A DNA stretch of 32,000 nt. Source: Halotia branconii CENA392 (GTDB taxonomy: Bacteria > Cyanobacteriota > Cyanobacteriia > Cyanobacteriales > Nostocaceae). Below the pieces are notes generated by a model. It did no database searches. It was not told the DNA's origin and saw only the letters and a program-made list of their open reading frames with translations. Below are positions 14,000 to 32,000 of the stretch, one piece after another (the stretch's first letter is position 1; each line of letters begins with the position of its first letter). The translations under genes were made by a program, and so were the position numbers. The stretch lies in the NCBI RefSeq assembly GCF_029953635.1, contig NZ_CP124543.1:5828367-5860366 (forward strand). Reading direction: 5' to 3'.

Positions 14000-16900
14000 T
14001 TACCTTTTTCTCTGAGAGCGATATTGTTGTCTTGACTGTAATCTTTGATTTTTTAATGGTTTTAATTCGCTATAAGCTTGTGTGCGGTTATGATTTTGTT
14101 TGGTTGTTTCTTCTTGGTTAATTTTATTAATCAAATGTTGGCTGAAACTATGGATAGTTGGGTAATTAAACATATCAACTATGGATAGTTCTACCCCAAA
14201 TTTTTCTTGCAAATGCTGATTAATGCGTACTAGTAATAAAGAATGCCCCCCTAGTTCAAAGAAATTATGGTAAATTCCTACCTTTTCTATTGCTAAAGCT
14301 TGTTGCCAAATGCCAGCAATGATATTTTCTATCTCTGTATTTGGCATGACATAATCTGATAATTCTTGATGTAAATCTGGCTTGGGTAAAGCGTGACGGT
14401 CTACTTTACCGTTAGGTGTCAAAGGTAAAGATTCAAGAATCACAAAAGCACTTGGTAACATATACCCAGGCAATTTATCAGCCAAAAATTGACGTAGTTC
14501 ACCTGTTGTAAGTGTCACGTTTTTTTGTGTCCCTACATAGGCGATTAAACGCTTACTTCGACTCCTTTCGACTTCGCTCAAGGCAAGCCGCTCAGTACAA
14601 GTATTTCCCCCAGTTTCTTCACGAGGAATAACACAACATATCTGCACATCATTATGTTGGCTGAGTGCTGCTTCAATTTCGCCCAATTCGATGCGGAATC
14701 CGCGTATTTTTACTTGATGATCGATACGTCCTAAATATTCAATTGTGCCATCTGGTAAATAACGTGCTAAATCCCCAGTTTTATACAATTTTGGACTATT
14801 AAACGTGGCTTTGCTTATTGGGATAGTTTTTGTCTCACGCAGAGGCGCAGAGACGCAGAGATTATGAGTTTGAGAAATCAAATTTTTAATTTTTATCCCT
14901 TCATTCAGCAACGCCTGAAACGGGTTGGAGATAAATTTCTCTTGTGTCAACTCTGGACGGTTGAGGTAGCCTCGCGCTAAACCTACACCATCAATGTGTA
15001 ATTCTCCTGGTACACCCACGGGTACGGGTTGTAAATACTCGTCTAAAATGTAGATTTGTGTATTAGCGATCGCTTTTCCAATAGTGATTTTCTCATCTTC
15101 ATAGGTGCATTGTGCGATCGTTGCACAGACAGAAGCTTCCGTTGGGCCGTAGGCATTAAAGAAATTTCTACCAACAGACCATTGCTTGATTAATTCAGGC
15201 GAACAAGCTTCTCCAGCGACAATAATTGTTTGCAATGTTGGCAATTCGTCACTCGGCATAACTGCTAACGCCGATGGTGGTAAGGTGACATGGGTAATAT
15301 CATGTTTGCGTAATTGCTTAACTAATGGCTTTCCTGGGAGTAGAGAATCTTTTGTTCCTAAATACAGTGTTCCGCCTGAACCCAAAGCCATGATGATTTC
15401 CCAAATCGAAGCATCAAAACTGAAGGAAGCAAACTGGAGAACGCGACTATCAGAAGTTAAGCCAAAAGTTTGTATCTGAGCTTGAGCTAGGTTGCATAAT
15501 CCTTTATGCTCCACCATCACACCTTTCGGTCTACCTGTTGAACCGGAAGTGTAAATCAAGTTAGCTAAATTAAAGGCTCTAACTTCACTAGTTGGGTTAT
15601 CTTGATTGTTTTGGGCAATTTTATCCCATACATCATCTAAACAAACCTTGTTTGCTTGATAATCAGGAAGTCTCTCAAGCAGCCATTGTTGAGTTAGCAG
15701 CACCGAAACTTGAGCATCTTCTAACATAAAGCGCAAACGCTCTTGAGGATAATCTGGGTCAAGTGGTAGGTATGCTCCTCCTGCTTTGAGAATCCCCAAA
15801 AGTCCTATGACCATTTCTAATGAACGTTCTACACAAATACCTACTAGCACATCTGGCTTCACACCCAATGAGCGCAAGTAATGAGCTAACCCATTAGCGC
15901 GATAATTTAATTGGTGATAAGTTAGTTGTTGATTTTCAAATACTACAGCTACAGCATTAGGAATACGCTGAACCTGCTCCTCAAACAATTGATGAACGCA
16001 CTTATCTAATGGATAATCTGCTTGAGTATCATTCCATTCAACCAATAGTTGATGTTGTTCAACTGCTGTCAGCATTGGTAATTGGGAAATCTGCGCCTCT
16101 GAATTAGCAACAATACCTTCCAGCAAAGTCACAAAATGACCAGTCATGCGCTCAATAGTGGACGCATCAAACAAATCAGTATTGTATTCCCACACACCCA
16201 GCAAGCCTTGAGTCGTGTTTTCCATCGACAAAGCTAAATCAACCTTGGCTGTTTTAGTTTCTACTGGTAATGTACTAACAGTTAACCCAGCAAGCTCTAA
16301 TTCTTGTAGAGGCGCATTTTGCAGCATAAACACTACTTGGAACAGTGGTGTATGTCCCAAATCCCTTTCCGGCTGTAATGCTTCCACCAGCATTTCAAAC
16401 GGCAAATTCTGATGAGTGTATGCTTCCATTGCTGTTTCTCGCACGCGAGTCAGCAACTCATTAAAACTAGGATTACCTGCTAAATTACTCCGCATGACTA
16501 AGGTATTGACAAAAAAGCCAATTAACCCTTCTAGTTCGGAGCGATCGCGGTTTGCAATTGGTGTCCCGACTAAAATATCTGACTGTCCTGTATAGCGGTA
16601 GAGTAAGGTATCATAAGCTGCCAACAGCATCATAAACAGAGTACAACCTTGCTCTTGGCTCAGTTTCAGCAATTTATCGGTTAACGCAACTGACAGTGTA
16701 AACTCATGATGTGCGCCAACAAACGTCTGTACTGCTGGTCTTGGTCTATCTGTAGGTAATGCTAATAAAGCAGGTGCATCCTTTAACTGTTGTTCCCAAT
16801 ACGAAAGTTGATTTTGCAGTACATTCCCTTGCAACCAGTTTCTTTGCCAAATCGCAAAATCTGCATACTGAATTGGTAATGGTGCTAAAGGTGACGGTTT

Positions 16901-19900: not shown

Positions 19901-22900
19901 TGACAGCGTAAACTGCTGGCGAACTCCTGTGAATGTCTGCACAGCAGGTCTTGGTCGGTCAATTGGTAAAGATAATACAGTTGGTGCGTCTTTTAGTTGC
20001 TGTTCCCAATAGGAAAGTTGATTTTGCAGTACATCCCCTTGTAACCAATGTCTTTGCCAAATGGCGAAATCTGCATACTGAATTGGCAATGGTGTTAAAG
20101 GTGACGGCTGACCTTGAGAATAAGCGTTGTATAGTGCTGCTAGTTCTTGGATAAATACACCCATTGACCAACCATCAGAGACAACATGGTGCATAAATAC
20201 TAACAAGATGTGTTCTGTATCATTCAGCACAACTAATGTTGCTCGAATTAACGCCTCAGTTGCTAAATCAAAAGGTTGAATTAGTTGTTTTTGCGCTAAC
20301 TGCTGTGTGGCGATTTCTTGTTCAGTCGCTGGTAAATCCTGGAAATCAACAATAGATAATATTCCCTGCGATGCACTGAGCTTGTCGAAGTGTTCCCTAA
20401 TTACTTGTGTTGGTTGTCCATCGACAGTGATGAAGTTAGTACGTAATGCTTCGTGGCGATGAATAATTTCAGTTAAGCTTTGCTCTAAGGCTGCTTGATT
20501 TAGACTTCCTACTAAACGCAAAGCTGTAGGGATATTGTAAAACGCACTATTCGGTTCTAATTGGTCTAAAAACCACAACCTTTGTTGAGCAAATGAAAGT
20601 GGTAAATCTGCATTCTTCACTCTTGGTAAAATTGGGGGTACAGATATTTCTAAATCTTGTTGCTGTAATTGCTCAATCGTTCGTGCTAATTCGGCTAGGG
20701 TTGTAGTAGCAAATAACTCACGCAATGGTAGTTCTAATTTGAAGCTGGTACGAATGCGTGAAAGCAATTGCGTTGCTAGTAGAGAATGTCCTCCTAATTC
20801 AAAGAAGTTATCATCAATGCTGACTTGTTCTACTTTCAGCACTTGCGACCAAATTTGTGCTAACAGTTCTTCAATTGAGTTGCGTGGAGCGATATATTTT
20901 TTTGTGCTGGTGCTGTATGATTCCGGTGCGGGTAAGGCTTTGCGGTCTATCTTACCGTTAGAGGTTAGAGGTAAAGATTCTAGCTTTACAAAAGCGTTGG
21001 GAATCATGTACTCTGGTAGCTTTGCTTTGAGGTATTGGCGCAGTTCTATAGGGGTGGGAGATTTTTCTTTAGTTACTACGTAAGCAACAAGACGTTTACT
21101 TCGACTTCTCTGCGAGACGCTACGCGAACGCTCAGTACAAGTATCCCCTGGTTCATCTTCGCGCACCAATACCACAGTTTCCCAAATATCAGGATGAGAT
21201 GCTAATAACGCCTCAATTTCTCCCAATTCGATGCGGAAACCACGAATTTTAACTTGATGGTCTATGCGTCCTAAATACTCTAACTCGCCATTAGGTAAAT
21301 AACGCGCTAAGTCTCCAGTTTTATATAGTTTTGAGTTGTGGTTAAAGGGATTAAAAATAAATTTTTGTGCTGTCAGATCAAAACGATTTAAATAACCTGT
21401 TGTCACCCCAGCACCACCGACATACATTTCACCGGGAACGCCTAGAGGGACTGGTTGAAGATATTCATCCAGCACATACACCTGTAAATCGGGTATGGGA
21501 CGACCGATAACGCTGGCTGTACTATGTAAATCGGCTTTACTCAAGGGACGATAGGTAACGTGTACGGTGGTTTCTGTAATTCCGTACATATTCACTAATT
21601 GCGGTTTGCTGTCTCCATGTCGCTCAAACCAAGGTTGTAAACTCTGGATTTCTAAGGCTTCTCCGCCAAATATTACTAGGCGTAAGTTTAATTCGCCTGT
21701 TGTTATTCCTGAGTTTTCGGCTTGAATTAGTTGGCGGAATGCTGAGGGTGTCTGATTGAGAACGGTGACTTTTTCTTGACACAATAACTCATAGAAAGAT
21801 TCTGGAGAACGAGTAATTAAATATGGCACAATTACTAATCTTCCACCGTATAACAAAGCACCCCAAATTTCCCACACAGAGAAATCAAAGGCGTAGGAAT
21901 GGAACATTGTCCACACATCGTCTTGATTGAAGTGATACCAAGCATCTGTAGCAGCAAATAACCGCACGACATTGTAGTGGTTGACTAATGTACCTTTGGG
22001 GTTTCCTGTTGAACCTGATGTGTAGATGATGTAGGCTAAATTTTGCCTTGTGGAGTTACTAACAGGATTTTCCTGACTTGCTCTAGAAATAATCTCCCAA
22101 TCTTTATCTAAGCAGACAACACGGGCATGATGCTCTGGTAAATCAGCTAGCAATTTCTCTTGAGTCAAAAGCACTGAAACTTTTGAATCATCAAGCATAT
22201 ATAATAAGCGATCGCTAGGATAATCTGGGTCAAGTGGCACATAAGCTCCACCTGCTTTAAGTATGCCTAGTAGTCCGACTATCATTTCTAATGAGCGTTC
22301 TACACACAAACCCACTAAAGTATCTGCACTTACACCCAATGTTTTGAGGTGATGTGCTAATTGATTAGCGCGAGTATTTAATTGATGGTATGTCAGTTTT
22401 TGCTGTTCATATACAACTGCTACAGCATCGGGTGTACGTTGAACTTGCTCTTCAAACAATTGATGAATGCATTTATCCGAGGGATAATTCGCTTGAGTAT
22501 CATTCCATTGAGTTAATAACTGTTGTTGTTCAGGCTGTGTTAGCAATGGTAATTGCCAAATCCTCTCTTCTGGATTGCTGACAATTCCTGCTAGCAAAGT
22601 TTGAAAATGTCCAGCCATCCGAGTAATTGTAGCTGGCTCAAATAGGTCAGAATTATACTCTAAACTTGCAGTTAGTCCTTGCTCAGTCTCGGTCATCAGC
22701 AAGGTTAAATCAAACTTAGCTGTCGGATTTTCTATTTCTAGCTGAGTCAGAGATAAACCAGGTAATTCCAATTTTCCCGGAGGTGTATTCAGCAAGACGA
22801 ACATTACCTGAAACAATGGAGAGTAGTTCAGGTTTCTTTCTGGCTGTAAGGCTTCGACTACTTGCTCAAATGGTACATCTTGATGAGAGTATGCTTCTAT

Positions 22901-23989
22901 TGCTACTTGGCGGACTCTTTGCAGTAACTCCCAAAAAGTAGGATTACCAGAAATGTCAGTACGCAACACCAAAATATTAACGAAAAAGCCAATTAAAGAC
23001 TCAATTTCGCTACGGTTGCGGTTAGCGATGGGGGAACCGACAAGAATATCTTGTTGATTGCTGTAGCGCGATAATAAAATGACAAAGCCAGTTAGCAAAG
23101 TCATGAATAAGGTTGCACCTGACTGTTCGCTAAGGCTTTTGAGTTTTTGAGTCAGCTGTTCATCTAGCTGAAAGTGCAGAATACTACCACGATTTGTCTG
23201 CACAGGTGGACGCACTCGGTCAGTGGGAAGTTCTAGCAGGGGAGGCGCGTCTGCTAATTGTCGCTTCCAGTAGTTCAGTTGATTGTCAGTGACTTGACCT
23301 TGCAACCATTTTCTCTGCCAAACTGCAAAGTCTGCATACTGAATGGGTAGTTTAGGTAATGGAGAAGGTTTACCAGCCGCAAAAGCTGTGTACAAAGTTG
23401 TTAGTTCGCGCCAGAAAAGACCTTCAGACCAACCATCAAAAGCAATATGGTGGATACTCAGAAGTAAGACATATTCATTTTCATCTAGCTGCACTAGGGA
23501 ACAGCGTAACGGCGAATTTTGATCTAAATCAAAGGGTTGTTGAACTTTGTTTTTAACTAGTTGTAAAACTTGAGTTTCCCTTTCTTGTTGAGAAAGTTCC
23601 TGAAGATTAATTACAGGTAACTTCAAGTTAAAGCTGGGTGCAATAACTTGAATCGGCTGATTATCCGCAGCGAAAAACCTAGTCCGCAATACTTCATGGC
23701 GTTGGATAATTTCATTAAAGCTATGCTCTAATGCAGAAATATTGAGCAAACCTTGAAGACGAAAAGCAAAGGAGACATTATAAGTAGAGCTATTTGGCTG
23801 CAATTGCTGAATGAACCATAATCTTTCTTGAGAAAAAGACAATGGTAAATGTTCATTCCGAGATACAGGCTGCAAAATTGGCGCTTGATTTTGTAATTCT
23901 AGAATACTGGCGATCGCTTGCCAAATATCTTTTCCTGTTTTAGCTGACTTATTCAGTTCTAATGGGTTGATTTCCGCAGAGTAGCTCAT
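14000..23989 (-). CDS. Trimodular non-ribosomal peptide synthetase C-A(Thr)-T-C-A(Leu)-T-C-A(Phe-like)-T
   Basis: 3329-aa ORF from the track. Domain limits from my residue count are C1 22556-23857 (HHIAFDGWS), A1 20936-22477 and T1 20675-20893. Next are C2 19295-20614, A2 17726-19216 and T2 17465-17683. Last are C3 16085-17404, A3 14393-16006 and T3 14135-14353. Specificity residues, read by aligning to the GrsA-PheA positions, are A1 DFWNIGMVHK (Thr), A2 DAWFLGNVVK (Leu) and A3 DAWTIAAVCK (Phe or a related aromatic). C1 directly follows the ligase and ACP genes, so it is positioned as an N-acylating starter C domain. There is no E or TE domain. Confidence 0.97.
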   Translation of the reverse strand: MSYSAEINPLELNKSAKTGKDIWQAIASILELQNQAPILQPVSRNEHLPLSFSQERLWFIQQLQPNSSTYNVSFAFRLQGLLNISALEHSFNEIIQRHEVLRTRFFAADNQPIQVIAPSFNLKLPVINLQELSQQERETQVLQLVKNKVQQPFDLDQNSPLRCSLVQLDENEYVLLLSIHHIAFDGWSEGLFWRELTTLYTAFAAGKPSPLPKLPIQYADFAVWQRKWLQGQVTDNQLNYWKRQLADAPPLLELPTDRVRPPVQTNRGSILHFQLDEQLTQKLKSLSEQSGATLFMTLLTGFVILLSRYSNQQDILVGSPIANRNRSEIESLIGFFVNILVLRTDISGNPTFWELLQRVRQVAIEAYSHQDVPFEQVVEALQPERNLNYSPLFQVMFVLLNTPPGKLELPGLSLTQLEIENPTAKFDLTLLMTETEQGLTASLEYNSDLFEPATITRMAGHFQTLLAGIVSNPEERIWQLPLLTQPEQQQLLTQWNDTQANYPSDKCIHQLFEEQVQRTPDAVAVVYEQQKLTYHQLNTRANQLAHHLKTLGVSADTLVGLCVERSLEMIVGLLGILKAGGAYVPLDPDYPSDRLLYMLDDSKVSVLLTQEKLLADLPEHHARVVCLDKDWEIISRASQENPVSNSTRQNLAYIIYTSGSTGNPKGTLVNHYNVVRLFAATDAWYHFNQDDVWTMFHSYAFDFSVWEIWGALLYGGRLVIVPYLITRSPESFYELLCQEKVTVLNQTPSAFRQLIQAENSGITTGELNLRLVIFGGEALEIQSLQPWFERHGDSKPQLVNMYGITETTVHVTYRPLSKADLHSTASVIGRPIPDLQVYVLDEYLQPVPLGVPGEMYVGGAGVTTGYLNRFDLTAQKFIFNPFNHNSKLYKTGDLARYLPNGELEYLGRIDHQVKIRGFRIELGEIEALLASHPDIWETVVLVREDEPGDTCTERSRSVSQRSRSKRLVAYVVTKEKSPTPIELRQYLKAKLPEYMIPNAFVKLESLPLTSNGKIDRKALPAPESYSTSTKKYIAPRNSIEELLAQIWSQVLKVEQVSIDDNFFELGGHSLLATQLLSRIRTSFKLELPLRELFATTTLAELARTIEQLQQQDLEISVPPILPRVKNADLPLSFAQQRLWFLDQLEPNSAFYNIPTALRLVGSLNQAALEQSLTEIIHRHEALRTNFITVDGQPTQVIREHFDKLSASQGILSIVDFQDLPATEQEIATQQLAQKQLIQPFDLATEALIRATLVVLNDTEHILLVFMHHVVSDGWSMGVFIQELAALYNAYSQGQPSPLTPLPIQYADFAIWQRHWLQGDVLQNQLSYWEQQLKDAPTVLSLPIDRPRPAVQTFTGVRQQFTLSVELTEKLVKLSQEQGCTLFMTLLAAYDTLLYRYTGQSDILVGTPIANRDRSEIEGLIGFFVNTLVMRSNLAGNPSFSELLNRVREMAMQAYTHQHLPFEMLVEALQPERNLAHTPLFQVMFVLENVPMSPVELTGLSFHPLVVETTIAKFDLTLLMENTTQGLVGWWEYNTDLFDASTIDRMTGHFVTLLEGIVANPETQISQLPLLTEVEQQQLLVEWNNTQAHYPLDKCVHQLFEEQVERTPDAVAVVFGNQKLTYQQLNIRANQLAHYLRSLGVKPDTLVGICVERSLEMLVGILGIIKAGGAYVPLDPNYPTERLHFMVADAQLSFLLTQEKLVNQLPDYQTKLICLDTYWQEISPLNQDNPINEVQANNLAYVIYTSGSTGQPKGVLVTHQSLLNLIFWHQCNFEITPLDKATQLAGTAFDAAVWELWPYLTTGASIYVVTSETLLSPIDLQNWLTSNKITISFLPTPFAEKLLSLEWDENVALRTMLVGGDKLHNYPSAFIPFTVVNNYGPTENTVVTTSGLVISNAQDTIASPPIGRPIANTKTYILDSNLQPLPIGVPGELYIGGASLAQGYLNRPELTQERFIPNPFNNSKLYKTGDLARYLPDGNIEYLGRIDNQVKIRGFRIELGEIEAALSQHIDIQACCVICREDNLRETCTELSRSKRLVAYLVVNQDSTPTISELRQYLKAKLPDYMVPSAFILLEYLPLTPNGKIDRKALPALELYSSNLDKYVAPRNPIEELLVQIWSQVLKIDQVGINDNFFELGGHSLLGTQLVSRIRSIFKVELPLRELFATATLAELAQVIDKLQQQKIEICEPPIVPRTEKTHVPLSFAQQRLWFLDQLEPNSALYNIPVALCLQGNLAQVALEKSLQEIINRHEALRTNFITVDGQPTQVIREHFDKLSASQGIESVVELQHLSTAETENAVQEIAQQEAITPFNLADEALIRVTLVVLSQTEHILLVCMHHAVSDGWSMGVFIQELAALYNAYTQNKPSPLAPLPIQYADFAIWQRNWLQGNVLQNQLSYWEQQLKDAPALLALPTDRPRPAVQTFVGAHHEFTLSVALTDKLLKLSQEQGCTLFMMLLAAYDTLLYRYTGQSDILVGTPIANRDRSELEGLIGFFVNTLVMRSNLAGNPSFNELLTRVRETAMEAYTHQNLPFEMLVEALQPERDLGHTPLFQVVFMLQNAPLQELELAGLTVSTLPVETKTAKVDLALSMENTTQGLLGVWEYNTDLFDASTIERMTGHFVTLLEGIVANSEAQISQLPMLTAVEQHQLLVEWNDTQADYPLDKCVHQLFEEQVQRIPNAVAVVFENQQLTYHQLNYRANGLAHYLRSLGVKPDVLVGICVERSLEMVIGLLGILKAGGAYLPLDPDYPQERLRFMLEDAQVSVLLTQQWLLERLPDYQANKVCLDDVWDKIAQNNQDNPTSEVRAFNLANLIYTSGSTGRPKGVMVEHKGLCNLAQAQIQTFGLTSDSRVLQFASFSFDASIWEIIMALGSGGTLYLGTKDSLLPGKPLVKQLRKHDITHVTLPPSALAVMPSDELPTLQTIIVAGEACSPELIKQWSVGRNFFNAYGPTEASVCATIAQCTYEDEKITIGKAIANTQIYILDEYLQPVPVGVPGELHIDGVGLARGYLNRPELTQEKFISNPFQALLNEGIKIKNLISQTHNLCVSAPLRETKTIPISKATFNSPKLYKTGDLARYLPDGTIEYLGRIDHQVKIRGFRIELGEIEAALSQHNDVQICCVIPREETGGNTCTERLALSEVERSRSKRLIAYVGTQKNVTLTTGELRQFLADKLPGYMLPSAFVILESLPLTPNGKVDRHALPKPDLHQELSDYVMPNTEIENIIAGIWQQALAIEKVGIYHNFFELGGHSLLLVRINQHLQEKFGVELSIVDMFNYPTIHSFSQHLINKINQEETTKQNHNRTQAYSELKPLKNQRLQSRQQYRSQRKR
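14555..14602. repeat. Small dispersed repeat, composite 48 nt, in frame in the A3 A8-A9 loop
   Basis: It has the same ends as the 24-nt form with a different 24-nt interior (cctttcgacttcgctcaaggcaagcc). It encodes TCTERLALSEVERSRS before KRLIAY. Confidence 0.8.
14801..14917. repeat. 117-nt in-frame insertion in the A3 A6-A7 loop containing a tandem octamer GCAGAGNC
   Basis: The protein reads NPF-QALLNEGIKIKNLISQTHNLCVSAPLRETKTIPISKATF-NSPKLYKTGD, whereas modules 1 and 2 read NPFN(H)NSKLYKTGD. The core 14839-14860 is GCAGAGGC GCAGAGAC GCAGAG. Confidence 0.7.
17153..17185. repeat. Repeat-like segment in C3 encoding EHFDKLSASQG
   Basis: It matches the sequence at 20363-20395 with one mismatch (gtcAaag) and sits at the homologous codon position. 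Confidence 0.55.
17891..17914. repeat. Small dispersed repeat, 24-nt basic form, in frame in the A2 A8-A9 loop
   Basis: ACTTCGACTTAGCTCAGTACAAGT encodes TCTELSRS immediately before KRLVAY. It has imperfect terminal inverted repeats, ACTTCGACT and AGTACAAGT. Confidence 0.8.
20363..20395. repeat. Repeat-like segment in C2 encoding EHFDKLSASQG
   Basis: The plus strand reads TCCCTGCGATGCACTGAGCTTGTCGAAGTGTTC. Its reverse complement carries the same TTCGAC-NN-GCTCAG core as the 24-nt A-domain element, but in the opposite orientation relative to the coding strand. The starter C domain and C4 lack it. Confidence 0.55.
21098..21142. repeat. Small dispersed repeat, composite 45 nt, in frame in the A1 A8-A9 loop
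   Basis: The plus strand reads ACTTCGACTT-ctctgcgagacgctacgcgaacG-CTCAGTACAAGT and encodes TCTERSRSVSQRSRS between REDEPGD and KRLVAYVV. The ends are the same as in the 24-nt copies at 17891 and 6310. Confidence 0.8.
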
Positions 23990-24050
23990 TGTAGTCTTCT
24001 GGCTTCAGGTCTTCAGGAATATGCAACAAAACAGCCGATACTCAAAACTA

Positions 24051-24302
24051 TCAGCCTTGCTTGGCATTTATTAACTGCACAATCATTTCTATACTTTGGA
24101 AATTTTCTGCATTAATATCATTAACTGCAAATCTAATACCAAAATTACTCTGTAATTTTAAAACTAGTGTCATAGCATTAACAGAATCTAGACCCAGGCT
24201 AAAGAGATTACTAGATTCTGTTAAATCTTCTCTATTAATATTTGGCAATATATTTAAAACTATATTTTTAGTTTTTTCTGTAATTAAATCAATAGTTTTC
24301 AT
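24051..24302 (-). CDS. Stand-alone acyl carrier protein
   Basis: 83-aa ORF with the phosphopantetheine-site motif LGLDSVNAM (Ser40, nt 24183-24185). Its ATG overlaps the ligase stop codon in an ATGA arrangement (24299-24302). It lies 61 nt upstream of the NRPS start. Confidence 0.85.
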   Translation of the reverse strand: MKTIDLITEKTKNIVLNILPNINREDLTESSNLFSLGLDSVNAMTLVLKLQSNFGIRFAVNDINAENFQSIEMIVQLINAKQG

Positions 24303-25837
24303 GATGTTATTTTATCAGATAAATTATCAATTAAGTTCTTTCTTAAAACCTTACCAAGTGGACTTTTAGGTATTTCATTGCGAAATTCGATAACTTTCGG
24401 TACTTTAAAATCAGCTAACTTGTCTTTGCAGTAAGATACAATCTCTTTCTCATCACAAATATCTTGGTTTTGAGTAACAATAACTGCTTTGATAATTTCT
24501 CCTGCATAAGAGCCTTTGATCCCAACCACTACAGCTTCCTTAACCTGATTGTGGGTTATCAATATTTTTTCGATTTCTAGCGGATCGACTTTATGTCCGC
24601 CTGTATCAATAAAGATTTGTTTTCTACCAGTAATATAAACCCGTCCCAATTCATCTTTTATGCCTAAATCACCAGTGAAAAATCTACCATTTTGAAATAC
24701 CTGTTGATTGAGTTTTGGTTGATTACAATATCCTTTTGTTAATGCTGGACTTTTGATAACTATCTCGCCAGTAGTACCAATTGGTAATTCTTTCCCCGCA
24801 TCATCAATAATTTTAATCTCAATGTTTTTTAAAGGTTCGCCTACAGAATTATAAGTGCTGGTTAAATCAGCATCGAGATTAATAGCAATAGAACCTGCTT
24901 CTGTACAGCCATAAAGTTGTCGCACCGGAATATCAAATCTTTGCAGGAATTTATCAAAAATCTCTTTTGCTAAAAAGTTACCCGCAGAAAAGCATAATTT
25001 CAGGGATGAGATATCAACTTGCGTATCATTTGGTGTTTCTGCGAGAGTGTTAAAAATATAGGGAACAGCAGGTAAAATAGTAATTTGCTCTTTTTCTATT
25101 AGTTCTAATACTCGTGCGCGTCTAAATACAAACGGTACTTCAATGGCTTTGCCTTGATTAGTAACTTGCTCTAAAACTGCCAAAGTCGCACCATTACTTA
25201 AAGCAGCTAATAAGCAATTACCTAATCCATGTGCGTGATACAGTGGCACTAAACATAAAATGTTATCTGCGGATGAGATATTAGTGGTTTGAGTAAAGTT
25301 GATGACTTCGTGATATAAATTATTTTGGCTTCTACATACTCTTTTTGGTCTACCCGTAGAACCAGAAGAATATTGATAAAGCACATCACCGCTAAAATTA
25401 GAGGCGCTTTCTGGAATTATTGAGTTATTTACTGGATAACTCAGTTTCATGTCATCAATAACAATTAATTCTATTTTTTTATCTAATTTAGAGATAATTT
25501 TACGACTAATATCTGCGCCATCACTATTGGTGATTATGGCACGAGCTTTGCTATCAATGATGTAGTAACTGAGTTCTTCTTCTTTGAGCAAAGGGTTGAT
25601 TGGCAAAGCTATAGCATTTATTTTCGCAATGGCATAAAAGGCGATCGCAAACTCTGGAATGTTGGGTAAAACTAAGGCTATACAATCACCTTGGGTAATA
25701 CCAGTCTTGCTTAAGTAGTGACTTAAATGTTGAATTTTAGCATACAGTTCTTGATAGCTAATCTTGACGTTATCGTAAGCGATCGCTGTTTTATTAGGGT
25801 AGCTTTTAACAACTTCTAAAAGTCTTTTTTTTAACAT
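24299..25837 (-). CDS. AMP-dependent acyl ligase (fatty acyl-AMP/acyl-ACP ligase type), probable starter-unit loader
   Basis: Adenylate-forming motifs are present: YSSGSTGRPKRV, YHAHGLGN, LYGCTEAG, FFTGDLG, GRKQIFIDTGGHKV and PKSPLGKVLRK. The track ORF starts at GTG 25867. I prefer ATG 25837 (MLKKRLLEVV...) because GAGG lies 5 nt upstream of it. Function is inferred from the ligase-ACP-C-domain gene order. Confidence 0.9.
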   Translation of the reverse strand: MLKKRLLEVVKSYPNKTAIAYDNVKISYQELYAKIQHLSHYLSKTGITQGDCIALVLPNIPEFAIAFYAIAKINAIALPINPLLKEEELSYYIIDSKARAIITNSDGADISRKIISKLDKKIELIVIDDMKLSYPVNNSIIPESASNFSGDVLYQYSSGSTGRPKRVCRSQNNLYHEVINFTQTTNISSADNILCLVPLYHAHGLGNCLLAALSNGATLAVLEQVTNQGKAIEVPFVFRRARVLELIEKEQITILPAVPYIFNTLAETPNDTQVDISSLKLCFSAGNFLAKEIFDKFLQRFDIPVRQLYGCTEAGSIAINLDADLTSTYNSVGEPLKNIEIKIIDDAGKELPIGTTGEIVIKSPALTKGYCNQPKLNQQVFQNGRFFTGDLGIKDELGRVYITGRKQIFIDTGGHKVDPLEIEKILITHNQVKEAVVVGIKGSYAGEIIKAVIVTQNQDICDEKEIVSYCKDKLADFKVPKVIEFRNEIPKSPLGKVLRKNLIDNLSDKITS

Positions 25838-25874
25838 CACTGCCTCAATATTTAAAAATGATCGCACTCAAAAT

Positions 25875-25896
25875 AATTCATGAATCATCATGAATT
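25875..25896. promoter_or_regulatory. Perfect 9-bp inverted repeat AATTCATGA-N4-TCATGAATT upstream of the ligase start
   Basis: The arms are 25875-25883 and 25888-25896, 38-59 nt upstream of ATG 25837. It could be an operator or a 5' UTR hairpin. Confidence 0.35.
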
Positions 25897-26049
25897 ATGA
25901 GATTTATACACGAGAGTTTTATAATATAAATTAAATTATTTTGGTTTTAATTTTTGTTGACTTATGGATTATCTCAGCTTTATCTATAGAACGCAATACT
26001 AGTAACAATGTAATATTTGGAATTGAAAATAGTTAGTTATGAAATTTAA

Positions 26050-26109
26050 GACACTTAAGGCAATGAAGTAGACACTTAAGATAATTAAGGAGACAGTTAA
26101 GACAGTTAA
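26050..26109 (-). promoter_or_regulatory. Array of four GACA(C/G)TTAA(G) motifs (TTAACTGTC on the minus strand) in the divergent intergenic region
   Basis: GACACTTAAG occurs at 26050-26059 and 26071-26080. GACAGTTAA occurs at 26092-26100 and 26101-26109. The array lies 213-272 nt upstream of the ligase ATG, and read in the direction of that operon the motif is TTAACTGTC. Confidence 0.5.
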
Positions 26110-26599
26110 CTAGATAATTAAAATATTTATATAACTTTTTTAAAACATTAGATGAAAATTAATTATTAACTCTAATTACCTTGCATATAGAAATATAATT
26201 AGACTTACAATAAGCTTTTATTACGCTCTAATCTCTCAGATAGTTTTAGCAGTTAAAACTGAGGTACTTCCACCCACAGATCAACTAAATAATTGTCTAA
26301 CTCAAAAATTTTCATTGCCTTTTCAGCAAATACCTGACAAAAATTTCATCGTATAGCGCCAGAGCTATGTTTTGATTTGAGAGTAGCTATTATAGTTAAT
26401 TTATTCGTTCTAGTTATGTAATAACCCCAAGAAAGTTTGTAAAAATTGTAATTAAAAATACATTAGTTAGCTACTTTCTTCCGTAAGGTTAGTCTCGCAG
26501 CTAGTTCTCTGTCTCGCATAAATTTAACCTTGCTTTGACGAACAAATTTATTACTTTACATTCCCGTGCTTTAACTGAATAATTGGAGATAAAAATTTC

Positions 26600-28561
26600 G
26601 TGGTAAATCAAATAGTTGAGCAATCAGTTTTAACATTTAATGGTCAAAAGGATTATATAGATTTTGGCAGAAATGATGTTGGTGGCGTTTTCGCTGAGGG
26701 AAGTTCGGCTTTTACCATTTCAGGATGGGTTAATCCTCATCAATTAACAAATCAAGCCACTACATACGGAACACGCAATGTATTTTTTGCGCGTTCTTCC
26801 GATCGATACAGCGATAATTTTGAATTTGGTATTAGTGAAGCAGGTAATTTAGATATTTACATTGATGAGACTGTTAGTAAATATGTCAAAACATTTGGTA
26901 ATCGAGAATTAACTATAGGACAATGGCACTTTTTTGCCATCATTTTCAATCAAGGCCAAGTAACTGTATATCTTGATGGTCATGAATACGGTGAATCTTT
27001 TACGGGTACTTCTTTAAATAAAGCAACAAGTTCTGTAACTTTGGGAGCGACTTTACATAATCACATATATTTTACAGGTCAATTAGCTCACATTAGCATC
27101 TGGAATTATCCTTGTACCCAAGAACAAATACAGAATCAACGTTCTGGGTTAATAGTCGGTGATGAACCAGGATTAATAGCTTACTGGAAATTAGATGAAG
27201 GCGAAGGAAAAACCGTCAAAAGCCAAACTAGTAACTCTTATCAAGGGACTGTGCGTGGTAATCCAAGTTGGGATTTAACACAAATTCCATTTGTAGAACA
27301 ATCATCTAATGAAGGTGAAATTATCAGTGAAACTGCAACTAATTTTCAGGAAGATGTCGCATTTTTAACGACGACAACTGTATTAGCTAACGAAGAATCC
27401 GAGACTATCCCCAAAGAGGAAACTAAAACAGACCAAACTAAAGTTCCTATTAATACCCAATTAGCACAAACATTAATTCAGGAGGAATCCTCAGAAACTA
27501 TGAACAATACATCTCAACCTAAATATAAAATACTGGCGATTGATGGAGGTGGTATTAGAGGTATTATTCCTGCACTCCTCTTAGCAGAAATTGAAAGACG
27601 GACACAAAAGCCTATATCTAGTTTATTTGATTTAATTGCGGGTACTTCTAGTGGCGGAATTTTGGCGTTGGGATTAACTAAACCCCGATTAAATACAGAG
27701 GTTTCTGATAATTTATCACCCGCTGAATATACAGCTGAGGATCTCTTCCAACTATTTCTTGAGTATGGCGCAGAAATATTCTATGAACCACTGTTTGAAA
27801 AAATACTTGGCCCCCTGGAAGATTTCTTTTTACCAAAATATTCTTCTGAGAGTCGAGAAGAAATTTTAAAACAATATTTTGGTAATAGCCCTCTAGAAAA
27901 TAATCTTAAAGAAGTTTTTGTCACTAGTTACGATATAGAACACCGCATTCCGATATTGTTTACTAACAAATCAGCAAAGCAAAATATTGAATCCAAAAAT
28001 TTCCGCAATTTTTGTGGAGGTTTTTCACTTTTAGATGCAGCCTTAGCCACCAGTGCTACTCCCACTTATTTTGCTCCCCATCGTATTGTCAATGCCCACA
28101 ATAATGATAGCGTATATACTTTAATTGATGGTGGAGTTATTGCTAATAATCCAGCACATTTGGCTATTTTAGAAGCACAAATTAGTAATAGACAACAAGC
28201 AAATAGAGTTATCAATACAGAAGATATTGTAATAGTTTCTTTAGGTACAGGTTCGCTCACAAGTGCATTTCATTACAGCAAAGTTAAAAATTGGGGACTT
28301 TTACAATGGGGAAGACCACTTTTAAATATTGTGTTTGATGGCGGTAGTGAAGTGGTAGCTGGAGAATTAGAACGCTTGTTTGCACCTAATAATGAAGAAA
28401 AAAGTTCTTATTATCGGTTTCAAACATTCTTAGATGGGGATTTAGAAGAATTAGATAATACTAAATTAAATAATACCCGTCAGTTACAAGCTACAGCCCA
28501 TCGGATGATTGCTGAAAATGGTCAAAAAATCGATGAGTTGTGTAGTGTTTTGTTAAGCTAA
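26600..28561 (+). CDS. LamG/concanavalin-like domain fused to a patatin-like phospholipase
   Basis: 653-aa ORF with a GTG start; GGAGA lies 10 nt upstream and an in-frame TGA sits at 26576. The N-terminus (~aa 10-225, nt 26627-27274) has LamG-like jelly-roll hallmarks: FTISGWVNP, WHFFAIIFNQGQVTVYLDG, AHISIWNY and LIAYWKLDEGEG. A Thr/Glu/Ser-rich linker covers ~27288-27523. The patatin domain (~27524-28459) carries DGGGIRG (27542-27562), GTSSG (27641-27655, Ser350) and DGG (28127-28135, Asp510). I see no signal peptide or TM segment. Confidence 0.85.
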   Translation: MVNQIVEQSVLTFNGQKDYIDFGRNDVGGVFAEGSSAFTISGWVNPHQLTNQATTYGTRNVFFARSSDRYSDNFEFGISEAGNLDIYIDETVSKYVKTFGNRELTIGQWHFFAIIFNQGQVTVYLDGHEYGESFTGTSLNKATSSVTLGATLHNHIYFTGQLAHISIWNYPCTQEQIQNQRSGLIVGDEPGLIAYWKLDEGEGKTVKSQTSNSYQGTVRGNPSWDLTQIPFVEQSSNEGEIISETATNFQEDVAFLTTTTVLANEESETIPKEETKTDQTKVPINTQLAQTLIQEESSETMNNTSQPKYKILAIDGGGIRGIIPALLLAEIERRTQKPISSLFDLIAGTSSGGILALGLTKPRLNTEVSDNLSPAEYTAEDLFQLFLEYGAEIFYEPLFEKILGPLEDFFLPKYSSESREEILKQYFGNSPLENNLKEVFVTSYDIEHRIPILFTNKSAKQNIESKNFRNFCGGFSLLDAALATSATPTYFAPHRIVNAHNNDSVYTLIDGGVIANNPAHLAILEAQISNRQQANRVINTEDIVIVSLGTGSLTSAFHYSKVKNWGLLQWGRPLLNIVFDGGSEVVAGELERLFAPNNEEKSSYYRFQTFLDGDLEELDNTKLNNTRQLQATAHRMIAENGQKIDELCSVLLS

Positions 28562-28650
28562 ATCCAATTTATTAAATTTAAGGGAGGGTAAGATGCTCAA
28601 TCCATAAAACTTTAATTAAAGTTAAAATTTGCAAAGAATATGTGTTTGAG

Positions 28651-28691
28651 CTTATCTGTCTCAATTGATTTGCTTAACTGTCTTATCTGTC
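28651..28691 (+). promoter_or_regulatory. Three CTTA(A/T)CTGTC motifs downstream of the patatin gene
   Basis: CTTATCTGTC is at 28651-28660, CTTAACTGTC at 28673-28682 and TTATCTGTC at 28683-28691. Confidence 0.4.
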
Positions 28692-28980
28692 CTTGTATGT
28701 TGGCCAAACTAATAAGAAAATATATGACTGTAAAAAGTGCCACAACACACTTCAAGATTCAGGTATTAGCTATTAAAGTAAAAATCAATGGATCTTGATA
28801 ATATAGCTCAGATTTCCAAACGAGCGAGATTTATAAATCATTCAATTACATTAGTTTCAACAGCCTATTTTCTGTTGTAATGTCACTGCGATCGCGTATG
28901 CATTGACTGCATTGGGATATTGTGGATGAGATTTTCTACATCACCCAGCTACCGATCGCATCGGTTTTAAATTATGGCAA

Positions 28981-29017
28981 TAACTGTCTTAACTGTCTTC
29001 TTAACTGTCTTAACTGC
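28981..29017 (+). promoter_or_regulatory. Array of four TTAACTGTC-type motifs next to a candidate promoter of the FAAL-KR gene
   Basis: TAACTGTC is at 28981-28988, TTAACTGTC at 28989-28997 and 29001-29009, and TTAACTGC at 29010-29017. The array ends 12 nt before a TTGACA hexamer and lies 136-172 nt upstream of ATG 29153. Confidence 0.5.
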
Positions 29018-29029
29018 TATTGCATTTTA

Positions 29030-29057
29030 TTGACAAAACTAAGATTATTTATCTAAT
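29030..29057 (+). promoter_or_regulatory. Candidate sigma70-type promoter (TTGACA, 16-nt spacer, TCTAAT)
   Basis: TTGACA is at 29030-29035 and TCTAAT at 29052-29057, which matches TATAAT at 5 of 6 positions. The elements lie ~95 nt upstream of the start codon. This rests on sequence match only. Confidence 0.35.
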
Positions 29058-29152
29058 GGATAATTGTAGACAAATAACAAATTATATTTATATTTTTTAA
29101 TTAAAATTAATTGAAGATTATTAACATTGGAGAACTAAGGATGTAAAACCTA

Positions 29153-32000
29153 ATGCAATTAGATAATCATAAACAGGTTTTAAAAGTTTTAAATAATAAA
29201 ATTTTTACATACGAAGAAATAGAATTTGCTATTAGGTCGAGTTTGACTGTAGATGATTGTGTAGTATTAAATAGGCAAACAAAAAATTTAAAATGTGAGT
29301 TAATAGCTTATGTAGTTCCATTAGGCTTGTTTGCTATTGAACAATTGTTGTCTCACTTGCAAAAAGTTTTACCTAGCGAATTGATACCCGTAGCATTTAT
29401 ACCAGTTTCAAGTATACCTATTACTGATACAGTACAGTTAGATGAAGCAACTTTAGTTAGCTTAGAAGTTATTGATACTGATTTAATAACTCGCCTAGAA
29501 AAACAATTGTACTTGTTGCCAGAAATTGATAGTTTTGCAGTAGTTACTGAACCAGTGGTTATAAAGATTCCTCCTGTGCATTTGGAGGATTTACTGGACG
29601 ATCATCAAGTATTCACAAATGAAAATAGCCAGCAAAATTTATCATCAATCAAACCTATTCAAAATATAGAAAACCAGAATTTATCCTATATCAACAAACT
29701 AGCCATTAGCCACGGAGAACCGCTACAATATTCCCCCGATGCTCCTAAAACTTTAGCAAAATTACTCGAAAAAACCGCTAAAAATACAAATAAAGGTATC
29801 ATATATATTCAACATCATGACAGTGAGAAAATTCAGTCTTATCAAGAATTATGGCAGGATGCCCAACGAATTTTAGCTGGCTTGAGAAAGTTAGGACTCA
29901 AACCACAAGATAAAATAATTTTTCAACTAGAAGACAATCAAGATTTCCTATGTGCGTTTTGGGGTTGCGTGATTGGTGGCTTTGTTCCCGTTGCCATATC
30001 TGTAGCTAAAACCTACGAACAACTTAACACTATTACCAGCAAACTTCAGAATACTTGGCAGATATTGGGGAAACCCCTGGTACTAACTAGCGATCTTTTA
30101 GCACCCAAAATTGCTAATTTAGCAACGTTGTTAAATTTAGAAAACTTGCAACTAGCGACTATCGAACAGTTGTATGAGTGCGAAGCGGATGAAAACTTGC
30201 ATCAGAGTCAACCAGAAGATTTAGCGATTTTGTTTTTAACTTCTGGCAGTACTGGTATACCCAAGTGTGTGATGTTGAATCATCACAACTTGTTGAGTAT
30301 GACAAATGGCTTTGTAGTCATGGGTAATTTTTCCCATCAAGACAGTGTTTTAAACTGGATGCCTTTGGATCATGTTGGCGCGCTAGTCTCTCTCAGCATT
30401 TTGGCTGTTAATTTGGGTTGCCAACAAATTCATGTGCCTACTAATTTGATTGTAGAGAATCCCCTCAAGTGGTTAGATTTGATTGATAATCATCAAGCTA
30501 CAATTAGTTGGACACCTAATTTTGCCTTTTCTTTAATCTGCGATCGCGCCAGTGAAATTCAGCAAAAGCACTGGAATTTATCGTCGATGCGTTTTATCAT
30601 CAACGCTGGCGAACCCATTGTTACTAAAGTAGCTAGAAGTTTTTTAAAGTTGCTTCGTCCATACAGTTTACCAACCACCGCGATTCATCCAGCCTTTGGG
30701 ATGTGCGAAACTGGTTCTGGTATTACCTACTCTAATAGTTTTTCTCTCGAATCTACATCAGATGACGTTTCATTTGTCGAATTGGGTTTGCCAATTGCGG
30801 CTGCTTCAGTGCGGATTGTTGACGAACATGAACAAATAGTGACAGAAGGCACTATTGGACGATTACAAGTAAAAGGTGCATCTGTTACTACTGGTTACTA
30901 TCAAAATCCCCAAGCGAACCAAGAAGCTTTTACCGTTGATGGTTGGTTTAATACAGGTGATTTAGGATTTTTGCAAGAAGGGCGTTTAACTATTACGGGA
31001 AGAATCAAAGATGTCATTATTATTAATGGCTTAAACTACTATTGCCATGAAATCGAAGCTGCTATTGAGGAACTAGAAGCCGTAGAAGTTTCATATACAG
31101 CCGCTTGTGCAGTCAGACAACCAGGAAGCAATACCGATAAATTAGCGATATTTTTCCATACTTCTGTTAGTGGCGATCGCATCATAAATCTCCTCAAAGA
31201 AATTCGCGCCAAAGTTGTTAACAAAGTAGGCGTAAACCCAGATTATTTAATTCCCGTAGATAAAGAAATTATTCCGAAAACTGCCATTGGAAAAATTCAG
31301 CGATCGCAACTCAGCCAACGGTTTAAAAATAGTGAATTTCAATCAATTATTAAACAGATTGATATCTTGTTTGGTAACACCAATACTACTATTCCTGACT
31401 GGTTCTATAAAAAAGTCTGGCGACAAAAGCCAGCCAATATTTTGCAACCCTTACCTCAAGATGGTCTGACTGTAGTATTCCTCGACAAGCTAGGATTAGG
31501 TGAATTTATTTGTCAGCAATTACAACAGCAAAACCTACCATATACTTGTGTTTCACCCGGTTACGATTTTACTCAAATCAGTCATCATCACTTTTTTTTA
31601 AACCCTGGTAACGCTGAACATTATCAAAGATTTTTTAAAGCAATAACATCAACCAAACTAAAAATTAGCCAGATTATCCATTTCTGGAATTATCAAGAAT
31701 ATAGCGGAGAAATTAATAATCTAGCAGCTTTAGAAAAAGCTCAAGAGTACGGAATTTATAGTTTATTATTTATTGTTCAAGCCTTAGAAAAAGTTCGGAA
31801 TGAACAACATTTCATTCAATTACTGTTTGTTTCTAACTATACGCAGTCTACGCAACTCACAGACAAAATAGCTTATGAAAAATCTCCTGTTCTCGGTGTC
31901 CTAAAAACTATTCCCCACGAAATCTCCTGGTTAAATTGTCGCCACATCGATTTGCAACTAAATTTAATTGAGGTCAACGGCAATCATATTCTACAAGAAC
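29153..32000 (+). CDS. Hybrid loading protein, C-terminal part beyond the window edge: degenerate A-subdomain-like N-terminus, FAAL-type adenylation domain, start of a PKS KR region
   Basis: The frame is open from ATG 29153, the first start after an in-frame TAA at 29144, to the window end; it is not in the track because it is truncated. aa ~20-105 resemble the A8-A10 part of an A domain (ELIAYVVP...LPSELIPVAFIPVSSIPIT) but lack the A10 Lys. The FAAL-like core (~29696-31358) has LTSGSTGIPKCV, NWMPLDHVGAL, FGMCETGSG, GWFNTGDLGF and GRIKDVIIINGLNYYCHEIE. From ~31394, PDWFYKKVWRQKP...TVVFLDKLGLGEFICQQL...IIHFWNY...SLLFIVQAL matches the pattern that precedes and begins PKS KR structural subdomains. 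Confidence 0.85.
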   Translation, partial: MQLDNHKQVLKVLNNKIFTYEEIEFAIRSSLTVDDCVVLNRQTKNLKCELIAYVVPLGLFAIEQLLSHLQKVLPSELIPVAFIPVSSIPITDTVQLDEATLVSLEVIDTDLITRLEKQLYLLPEIDSFAVVTEPVVIKIPPVHLEDLLDDHQVFTNENSQQNLSSIKPIQNIENQNLSYINKLAISHGEPLQYSPDAPKTLAKLLEKTAKNTNKGIIYIQHHDSEKIQSYQELWQDAQRILAGLRKLGLKPQDKIIFQLEDNQDFLCAFWGCVIGGFVPVAISVAKTYEQLNTITSKLQNTWQILGKPLVLTSDLLAPKIANLATLLNLENLQLATIEQLYECEADENLHQSQPEDLAILFLTSGSTGIPKCVMLNHHNLLSMTNGFVVMGNFSHQDSVLNWMPLDHVGALVSLSILAVNLGCQQIHVPTNLIVENPLKWLDLIDNHQATISWTPNFAFSLICDRASEIQQKHWNLSSMRFIINAGEPIVTKVARSFLKLLRPYSLPTTAIHPAFGMCETGSGITYSNSFSLESTSDDVSFVELGLPIAAASVRIVDEHEQIVTEGTIGRLQVKGASVTTGYYQNPQANQEAFTVDGWFNTGDLGFLQEGRLTITGRIKDVIIINGLNYYCHEIEAAIEELEAVEVSYTAACAVRQPGSNTDKLAIFFHTSVSGDRIINLLKEIRAKVVNKVGVNPDYLIPVDKEIIPKTAIGKIQRSQLSQRFKNSEFQSIIKQIDILFGNTNTTIPDWFYKKVWRQKPANILQPLPQDGLTVVFLDKLGLGEFICQQLQQQNLPYTCVSPGYDFTQISHHHFFLNPGNAEHYQRFFKAITSTKLKISQIIHFWNYQEYSGEINNLAALEKAQEYGIYSLLFIVQALEKVRNEQHFIQLLFVSNYTQSTQLTDKIAYEKSPVLGVLKTIPHEISWLNCRHIDLQLNLIEVNGNHILQE

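Follow-up and report, generated by a model that had tools for sequence, protein, structure and literature searches.

A phased array of short direct repeats as a predicted cis-regulatory promoter module in heterocyst-forming cyanobacteria

The stretch of Halotia branconii CENA392 DNA considered here (contig NZ_CP124543.1; 32,000 nucleotides in all, which we refer to as the window) carries three clusters of a 9-nt motif, designated A, B and C, each of which appears to be a separate copy of a promoter module found widely among heterocyst-forming cyanobacteria. This module would consist of two parts: a head-to-tail array of 2-13 units of the form C-TTAANTGT-C, with a 9-nt period and often one 3-nt insert, and a weak TTGCAT-type -35 box that is abutted by the last unit and followed, after a 17-nt spacer, by a good and often TG-extended -10 box. 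In the window, array A would serve a minus-strand operon of ligase, nonribosomal peptide synthetase (NRPS) and polyketide synthase (PKS) genes, array C an aeruginosin-type operon on the plus strand, and array B a gene that has since decayed. We consider it likely that the arrays are cis-regulatory and bind a protein, the binding itself being a prediction, and as a promoter module they are real, conserved and, it appears, undescribed. A sequence-only reading of the same DNA had proposed a common operator array that co-regulates two separately transcribed parts of one pathway; what survives of this proposal is the shared directional promoter element, which is conserved and phased, and what does not is the single pathway, as the two operons belong to separate gene clusters.

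The window has a G+C content of 38.7% and contains 23 GCGATCGC (HIP1) palindromes, which mark it as cyanobacterial DNA. Exact copies of TTAACTGTC number five, as compared to 0.35 expected, a count reached in 0 of 100 shuffles, and all five fall within clusters A, B and C, where the units lie on a 9/12-nt lattice. Tolerance of one mismatch raises the count to 22 (10.1 expected), of which ten lie inside the clusters and 12 outside, the latter being at chance level. When the sequence was re-read, the eleven units previously reported were found in their three clusters, i.e., 26050-58, 26071-79, 26092-100 and 26101-109 on the minus strand (A), 28652-60, 28674-82 and 28683-91 on the plus strand (B), and 28980-88, 28989-97, 29001-09 and 29010-18 on the plus strand (C). 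The reported distances from units to start codons (213-272 nt to the ATG at 25837 and 136-172 nt to the ATG at 29153) and the 17-mer common to 26092-26109 (minus) and 28981-28997 are likewise correct. Cluster A has three more degenerate units, one at 26041-49 (TTAAATTTC) and two at 26080-88 and 26113-21 (TTAATTATC), which makes it a seven-unit array (26041..26121, minus, period 21) whose order on the minus strand is TTAATTATC, 3 nt, TTAACTGTC, TTAACTGTC, 3 nt, TTAATTATC, TTAAGTGTC, 12 nt, TTAAGTGTC, TTAAATTTC. Array B (28652..28691, plus) consists of TTATCTGTC, 13 nt, TTAACTGTC and TTATCTGTC, and array C (28980..29018, plus) of ATAACTGTC, TTAACTGTC, 3 nt, TTAACTGTC and TTAACTGCT. Arrays A and C have a common 21-nt lattice of 9+9+3, that is, two abutting 9-mers and then 3 nt (TRF period 21), and they match each other in inverted orientation over 51 nt with 80% identity.

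A promoter is predicted downstream of each array. The putative promoter of the aeruginosin-type operon (29020..29048, plus) has its -35 box, TTGCAT at 29020-25, directly after the last unit of array C (29018), then a 17-nt spacer and the -10 box GATTAT at 29043-48, with a predicted start at ~29055. Among four orthologous upstream regions TTGCA is invariant, the sixth base being C in one of them (L128), and GATTAT is also invariant; the TTGACA at 29030-35 that had been taken for the -35 box sits in the spacer and is not conserved, and the conserved TTGCAT takes its place. The leader at 29055-29152 (~100 nt), which includes CT(A/G)ATGGATAATTGTAGACAAA, is conserved along with the promoter and could be a further regulatory element. 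Promoter B (28693..28721, plus) is predicted to have a TTGTAT -35 box at 28693-98, one base (C) past the last unit of array B, a 17-nt spacer, a GAAAAT -10 box at 28716-21 and a start at ~28728, and it fits the consensus of the array family, CTTG(C/T)AT...nAnnnT. The candidate promoter of the ligase operon (25968..25996, minus) lies 44 nt downstream of array A (array end 26041) and comprises the -35 box TTGCGT (25996-25991), a 17-nt spacer and the TG-extended -10 box GATAAT (25973-25968), with a start predicted at ~25961. Its block TACTAGTATTGYRTTCT..GATAAAGCTGAGATAATCCAT is kept in Tolypothrix PCC 7910 and Calothrix (L250/L251), and its core TTGCGT...TGAGATAtT in [Phormidium] LEGE 05292 (L009).

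The first copies recognized beyond the window stand upstream of microviridin precursor genes and of one patatin orthologue, at loci unrelated to it. We scanned one genome per species, 185,579 species in all, for TTANNTGTC dimers by means of the pattern TTAANTGTCTTAANTGTC and obtained at least 120 loci, to which, among the matches listed, all of the cross-locus counts given below refer (97 cyanobacterial loci, 95 arrays). The cyanobacterial loci, 97 of the 120, are nearly all from Nostocales, an order that makes up a tiny share of the species scanned, and they include Nostoc, Scytonema, Tolypothrix, Calothrix, Brasilonema, Fischerella and other genera, with several loci in some genomes. None of the 97 cyanobacterial matches lies inside a long open reading frame (ORF), all being intergenic, as compared to 15 of the 23 non-cyanobacterial ones. 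The motif is not restricted to this locus, a point that the sequence-only reading had wanted checked, and it is dispersed across Nostocales genomes, but always in association with promoters, so that its dispersal does not refute the regulatory reading in the way that reading had foreseen. The 18-mer was not found in the literature searched and the 9-mer occurs there only in unrelated primers; nor is the element described in the literature on Nostoc gene-cluster regulation, cyanobacterial LytTR proteins or promoter tandem repeats. A metagenome scan for two units within 30 nt returned mostly chance matches and unrelated satellites and is uninformative on spacing. One marine metagenome contig (L135, 1-270) carries 13 copies of a 21-nt satellite with TTAACTGTC, followed by (GA)n, and looks eukaryotic and unrelated. 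A Sodalis metagenome-assembled genome with an enterobacterial label (L111, ~505-541) has four perfect tandem copies of TTAACTGTC, which may reflect chance, contamination or an unrelated repeat.

Across loci the arrays share an anatomy that is regular in its details and variable in its extent. They contain 2-13 units, and adjacent units are spaced most often by 9 nt (241), followed by 12 nt (45), 21 nt (16) and 11 nt (6); pairwise distances between units are dominated by 9 nt (209), with 18 nt (80) and 21 nt (29) behind. The unit consensus is TTAA[C>A>T>G]T[G>A>T]T[C>T]. Where no other unit abuts in front, the unit is preceded by C in 121 of 161 cases (background 19%), and since the preceding base is mostly C, the functional unit is predicted to be C-TTAANTGT-C, with the C common to neighbouring units. 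A TTG follows within 0-2 nt of the last unit in 56 of 95 arrays, and the tail consensus, CTTGnATnTT, ~11 variable nt and TnAnAnnnT, corresponds to a TTGCAT-type -35 box, a 17-nt spacer and a (TG)nGAnAAT -10 box; 53 of the 95 tails fit TTGnnn-N15-19-nAnnnT. In the 65 arrays that can be anchored on the -35 box, unit starts peak at -10 (38), -19 (47) and -28 (15) from it. The 17-nt spacing and the fixed phase, together with the three window promoters, are what is looked for in a sigma-70-type promoter with an adjacent, phased upstream site. The arrays are also directional: of the nearest ORFs downstream (120 aa or longer), 77 run in the same direction as the array and 12 do not, and the upstream neighbour is unbiased (46 versus 40). 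The distance from array to downstream ORF has a median of 285 nt and a 10-90% range of 96-696 nt. Taken together, these features point to a directional promoter module and do not fit a neutral repeat or a 5' leader element.

Comparison of orthologous promoters gives the same picture. Between the window and three orthologous loci (L126, L127, L128), the DNA upstream of the aerA-type gene has no similarity until the array is reached, from which point array, promoter and ~100-nt leader align at ~81% column identity; the copy number of array C is 2+2 in the window, 3+2 in L126 and L127, and 2+2+2 in L128. Upstream of the ligase operon, array A and its promoter are kept at 84-86% nt identity in the Tolypothrix and Calothrix loci, and at the [Phormidium] LEGE 05292 ligase locus an array is present and abuts TTGCGT. 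These orthologous arrays stand in otherwise different neighbourhoods. Conservation in orthologous loci, on which the sequence-only reading had made its regulatory idea depend, is thereby found for both operons, with one loss (Scytonema NIES-4073, L252). Microviridin precursors have arrays in six genomes or more, one of them that of N. punctiforme PCC 73102, where the microviridin promoter reads TTAACTTTC x3 ... TTAACTGTC TTAACTGAC CTTGAAAA.

The genes downstream of the arrays recur by family. The first downstream ORFs were clustered and then sampled by Pfam (about 83 genes), and this sample includes geosmin synthases (9), NRPS/PKS/adenylation genes (7), TerB-like proteins (5), microviridin precursors or ATP-grasp ligases (at least 5 loci), LCAT-type lipases (3), RPE65 carotenoid oxygenases (3), LamG-patatin proteins (2-3), two each of PatG cyanobactin proteases, MbtH, phytochelatin-synthase-like proteins and fatty-acid hydroxylases, a Tle1-type phospholipase, one each of OAA, CVNH and ricin-B lectins, and many small secreted proteins. 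A hallmark of a natural-product gene cluster lies within 8 kb at 32 of the 97 loci. The downstream gene set looks like an arsenal for defence or interaction. The three lectin families (CVNH, which is cyanovirin-like, OAA and ricin-B) are found directly past arrays in different genera (L050, L060, L087), and several small signal-peptide proteins without a known family are also directly downstream of arrays. In N. punctiforme, high cell density induces the microviridin, nostopeptolide, anabaenopeptin and several orphan clusters together, as do nostoclide and nostovalerolactone (PMC9324945); the link between these data and the array-carrying microviridin promoter of the same organism is correlative.

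The layout of the module is typical of promoters that depend on a DNA-bound regulator beside RNA polymerase, and on this account we read the units as regulator sites. A single trans-acting regulator, with its gene elsewhere in the genome, would bind them, and from its place beside the -35 box it would control the recruitment of RNA polymerase; activation is the more likely outcome, with repression by occlusion the lesser option. Such a regulator would join unlinked operons into one regulon that takes in geosmin, microviridin, aeruginosin-type, other NRPS/PKS and cyanobactin clusters, lectins, lipases (including the LamG-patatin proteins) and small secreted proteins. A search of ~820 ORFs from the cyanobacterial loci for a cluster-situated regulator, with AraC, MarA, PhoB, NarL, CRP, AgrA, AlgR and YpdB as seeds, found no recurrent neighbour. 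It did find one AraC-type gene (L086) and scattered receiver-domain proteins. An OmpR-type hybrid regulator stands downstream of one array (L067), to which a similar-looking gene in L096 is unrelated. The lack of a recurrent regulator gene beside the arrays makes a global factor probable.

Several points weigh against a regulatory role as just described. The orthologous ligase cluster of Scytonema NIES-4073 has no array, and the units of array A in the window stop 44 nt short of the -35 box and do not abut it. Array B is kept at 92% identity in spite of the decay of its gene to a remnant in each of the three genomes compared, which may mean that the array has another role or simply that the divergence is recent. 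About two thirds of the array loci have no gene-cluster hallmark, from which it would follow that the regulon is broader than natural products. Finally, the conservation, phasing, direction and gene associations of the arrays are observed, and the binding of a protein, the sign of regulation and the start sites are all read from sequence.

A far-reaching extension of the regulatory reading, and a distinctly less probable one, is an order-wide master regulon in which a single two-component regulator, possibly of the LytTR type, switches on the whole chemical-defence arsenal of heterocystous cyanobacteria, including protease-inhibitor peptides, geosmin, cyanobactins, other NRPS/PKS products, lectins and lipases. 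The signal could then be cell density, or mediators such as nostoclide and nostovalerolactone, by analogy with the agr and com systems of Firmicutes; copy number would tune each promoter, and the arrays would also be breakpoints at which gene clusters and promoters are shuffled. Most natural-product clusters of cyanobacteria are silent in culture, and to our knowledge neither a shared DNA element nor a master regulator for their coordinated induction is known. A common 9-bp unit gives the question of co-regulation a concrete handle, as bait for the regulator and as a means to predict the regulon in any Nostocales genome, and the arrays could supply co-regulated promoter parts for engineering. 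If the idea is true, geosmin taste-and-odour events and the production of protease inhibitors in blooms would come under one control. For the window, the idea of a single pathway split over two operons gives way to a picture of two gene clusters and a relic promoter with one regulatory module in common.

As to what might bind the units, our leading guess, and a tentative one, is a response regulator of the LytTR type. The guess comes from the AgrA/LytTR box, a 9-bp site with the sequence 5'-ACAGTTAAG-3' (PMC11039898; PMC8228455), of which the unit, written as CTTAACTGT or C+TTAACTGT, is the exact reverse complement. The base that matches G4 of the box is C on the array strand in 69% of 480 units, and the base that matches G9 is C in 75% of units without an abutting predecessor and in 96% at position 9 of units within an array; the likeness thus extends to the G contacted by AgrA H169, opposite which the array strand has C in these 75-96% of units. 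The consensus of the LytTR family as a whole is looser, [TA][AC][CA]GTTN[AG][TG]. The sites of AgrA are direct repeats a short way upstream of the promoters that it serves, the proximal repeat being centred near -60 (PMC4227749), and LytTR regulators typically control exoproducts and quorum responses (PMC7446807). The LytTR boxes of AgrA, ComE and PlnC-type regulators serve the quorum-sensing control of toxins, bacteriocins and exoproteins in Firmicutes, and the array targets are likewise secreted or defensive; like these boxes, the array units are direct repeats just upstream of promoters. Paired LytTR boxes are 21-22 bp apart from start to start; a 9+12 = 21-nt spacing occurs in arrays A and C, and across loci distances of 9 nt (209) and 18 nt (80) outnumber those of 21 nt (29). 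Unlike LytTR sites, the units mostly abut at 9 nt (the boxes are separated by 12-13 bp) and are present in 2-13 copies (the boxes form one pair), and unlike the case of AgrA the proximal unit touches the -35 box, in a different phylum.

The following results count against the LytTR guess or leave it where it was. The strand that reads toward the gene carries CTTAACTGT and not ACAGTTAAG. At agr P2 the AgrA box reads toward the promoter, i.e., opposite to the arrays, an orientation that the oligonucleotides in PMC8228455 support. The 9-nt pairs outnumber the 21-nt pairs (209 versus 29), and no ORF with a LytTR domain was found among about 800 ORFs of the fetched loci. A tblastn search for LytTR in plasmids gave no cyanobacterial record among the matches listed, a result that is uninformative for chromosomes.

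An unlikely alternative is that the units are Pho boxes, or sites of another winged-helix regulator of the OmpR/PhoB family, and that the gene clusters, and lipases such as patatin, respond to phosphate starvation or a similar two-component signal. The cyanobacterial Pho box (SphR/PhoB) is a tandem direct repeat of CTTAACCT, with at least three 8-bp units, 3-bp linkers and an 11-bp period, and it is placed at the -35 region or a little upstream of it (PMC1906773). It has CTTAAC in common with the array unit, the arrays stand directly upstream of the -35 region as OmpR/PhoB-type activator sites do, and lipases would suit the recycling of phospholipids; against this, the arrays have spacings of 9 or 12 nt and only rarely 11 (241, 45 and 6, respectively). 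The Pho regulon consists of pst, phoA and sphX, and no pst, pho, sphX or phn gene is present among the ~83 downstream genes, which excludes the Pho regulon more firmly than it does an unknown paralogue. The Pho box proper was rejected on its period and on the downstream gene set.

An OmpR/PhoB-family paralogue that recognizes the CTTAAC core at a different period is one of the alternatives to a LytTR binder, and a RemA-like protein is the other. RemA, which acts at the matrix promoters of Bacillus subtilis, has a half-LytTR fold, wraps DNA and is an activator, and orthologues are reported in cyanobacteria (PMC8481266). RemA regions resemble the arrays in having short direct repeats upstream of the promoter (six or more for RemA), and they differ in that the RemA 7-mers are AT-rich, little conserved and set 3 bp apart (10-bp period); RemA is also widely distributed, whereas the arrays are essentially confined to Nostocales. 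Among activator-bound sites, those of the Streptomyces antibiotic regulatory proteins (SARPs) are heptamer direct repeats at or overlapping the -35 box of antibiotic promoters, with 11-nt spacing, and SARP regulators are usually pathway-specific and encoded in the cluster. The arrays are alike in being direct repeats at the -35 of biosynthetic promoters and unlike in that the motif occurs at many unlinked loci with no consistent regulator nearby. Ribbon-helix-helix proteins (MetJ, omega), which bind tandem arrays of 7-8-bp operators, are a further analogy. By comparison with these systems, the arrays would be direct-repeat regulator sites beside the -35 box that are unusual in their abutting 9-bp units, their variable copy number and their order-wide association with metabolite, lectin and lipase genes.

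The possibility that the arrays are neutral, slippage-prone tandem repeats of the STRR or TAACTGA kind, intergenic and with no regulatory role, seems improbable to us. Copy number does vary between orthologues (and from 2 to 13 units overall), the array is absent from the Scytonema NIES-4073 cluster, and cyanobacteria are rich in short tandem repeats (PMC4679880). A neutral repeat would, however, have no reason to keep a fixed phase to a -35/-10 pair, to be biased 77 to 12 toward the downstream gene, to persist at orthologous promoters across genera when the surrounding DNA is unrelated, or to have recurring gene families downstream. The TAACTGA heptamers and STRR of cyanobacteria and Beggiatoaceae lie within a few nt of start codons and have a proposed post-transcriptional role (PMC4679880). 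They are like the array units in being short, intergenic and directional and in their TAACTG core, and unlike them in their 7-nt period (9 nt in the arrays), in their position (the arrays are a median of 285 nt from the ORF) and in that no phasing to a -35 box is reported for the heptamers. That the arrays act in RNA, as a 5' leader element for a translational regulator of the kind proposed for the Beggiatoaceae repeats, is suggested by the similar core and by the intergenic, directional placement of those repeats (PMC4679880) and is very improbable, as the arrays are upstream of a conserved -35/-10 pair and not near start codons; Rfam gave no match in 25800-29300.

The first ~65 codons of a phytochelatin-synthase-like gene are present at 28788..28978 (plus) as a remnant in three frames, frameshifted and with in-frame stops, which is 82-92% identical over the three frames (tblastn) to the intact protein of Nostoc L114, a member of Pfam PF05023, and which stops one base before array C. 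Intact phytochelatin-synthase-like genes in Nostoc L114 and L006 have a unit-spacer-unit-unit promoter upstream, the layout of array B, and because the intact copies carry this promoter, cluster B, for which the sequence-only reading had offered no explanation, is predicted to be the promoter of the decayed gene. Its dimer is the part that is 92% identical in the Tolypothrix PCC 7910 and Calothrix loci. The remnant and its promoter are ~90% identical to the equally truncated copies in these two genomes, as compared to 77-82% for the neighbouring spacer, and a short transcript may have been retained for some purpose. A terminator-like hairpin, ACCGATCGCATCGGT followed by TTTTAAATTAT and with an HIP1-like core, is situated within the remnant at 28951-28965, which is 15 nt upstream of array C; transcription from promoter B could be stopped there before it reads into the aeruginosin-type promoter.

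Between arrays A and B lies a LamG-patatin segment of 2,475 bp (26197..28671, plus), which is made up of the gene at 26600-28561 with 403 nt upstream and 110 nt downstream of it. The segment is a clean indel: Tolypothrix PCC 7910 and Calothrix lack it in a region that otherwise runs collinear with the window, and in them homology to the window stops at 26196 and restarts at 28672, the two points being adjacent in both (target positions 358|359). Without the patatin gene, arrays A and B of these relatives are divergent, ~85 nt apart, and form a compact divergent promoter pair; in both loci one array is at 4632-4660 (minus) and the arrays from 4739 onward point away from it. We infer that arrays A and B pre-exist the patatin segment, because the patatin-free relatives hold both. 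The patatin gene would thus be an inserted or lost segment between two promoters, and the arrays would bracket it only because it sits in a region that in relatives is a compact divergent promoter pair. LamG-patatin orthologues, ~70% identical, occur throughout Nostocales, usually in or beside a microviridin cluster, and in N. punctiforme PCC 73102 the order is the nostopeptolide end, the microviridin genes and the patatin gene. Some of these orthologues have arrays (L002, L098, L106), unlike the window gene, directly upstream of which there is none; all that is present upstream of the latter is a degenerate TTAATTATT...CCTTGCAT (26159-26187), and it has no convincing -10 box.

The alternative offered by the sequence-only reading, that a patatin cassette, inserted or invertible, ends at the inverted arrays, was right in that the patatin segment is an indel, and it gains some appeal from the inverted match of arrays A and C, from the clean indel between A and B and from the aeruginosin-type block, which starts exactly at array C beside the truncated gene. 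It is highly unlikely all the same, since arrays A and B are present and divergent in genomes that lack the segment, the boundary of the indel is 75 nt outside array A and not within it, and array C is upstream of orthologous genes without a partner array. No recombinase or transposase gene, target duplication or terminal inverted repeat was found at the ends of the indel. Both rearrangement breakpoints touch an array, the aeruginosin-type block at C and the patatin indel at B, and we may speculate that dispersed arrays favour recombination.

The genes that flank the arrays, as assigned by Pfam, are read as those of two gene clusters and not as parts of one pathway, because the ligase operon and the aeruginosin-type operon are each found without the other in relatives. 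The left cluster (minus strand) begins with a stand-alone adenylate-forming ligase (24299..25837; 512 aa from the ATG at 25837) and continues with an acyl carrier protein (ACP; 24051-24302), an NRPS of 3,329 aa (14000-23989), a KS-AT-MT-ACP PKS (9732-13997) and a second NRPS (1-9420) that continues beyond the edge of the window. The ACP and NRPS genes are separated by 61 nt, in which there is a short tandem repeat, GTCTTCAG x3, at 23994-24017. In [Phormidium] LEGE 05292 (L009, 748-2890) and Scytonema NIES-4073 (L252, 4347-6539) a chorismate pyruvate-lyase gene precedes the orthologous ligase; this gene is absent at the window, Tolypothrix and Calothrix ligase loci, and it suggests a 4-hydroxybenzoate-type starter for the left cluster.

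The right cluster begins with a gene (29153..32000, plus; 1,402 aa in L001) that had been labelled FAAL-KR and that, from Pfam and the gene order of its orthologues, is instead the A-KR-ACP loading module of an aeruginosin-type cluster. Its orthologues are 83-89% identical and are followed by genes for an NRPS, a 199-aa protein, a cupin and a short-chain dehydrogenase/reductase (SDR), an order that we take to correspond to aerA-B-D-E-F and on which the aeruginosin-type assignment is based. At one further locus (L030, ~497-574, minus) three array dimers with 30-nt spacing stand directly before an ORF whose start falls midway through an A-KR-ACP-like sequence and which aligns from residue ~224 of the window protein; the gene could be truncated, or it could be a shorter variant that has a new promoter.

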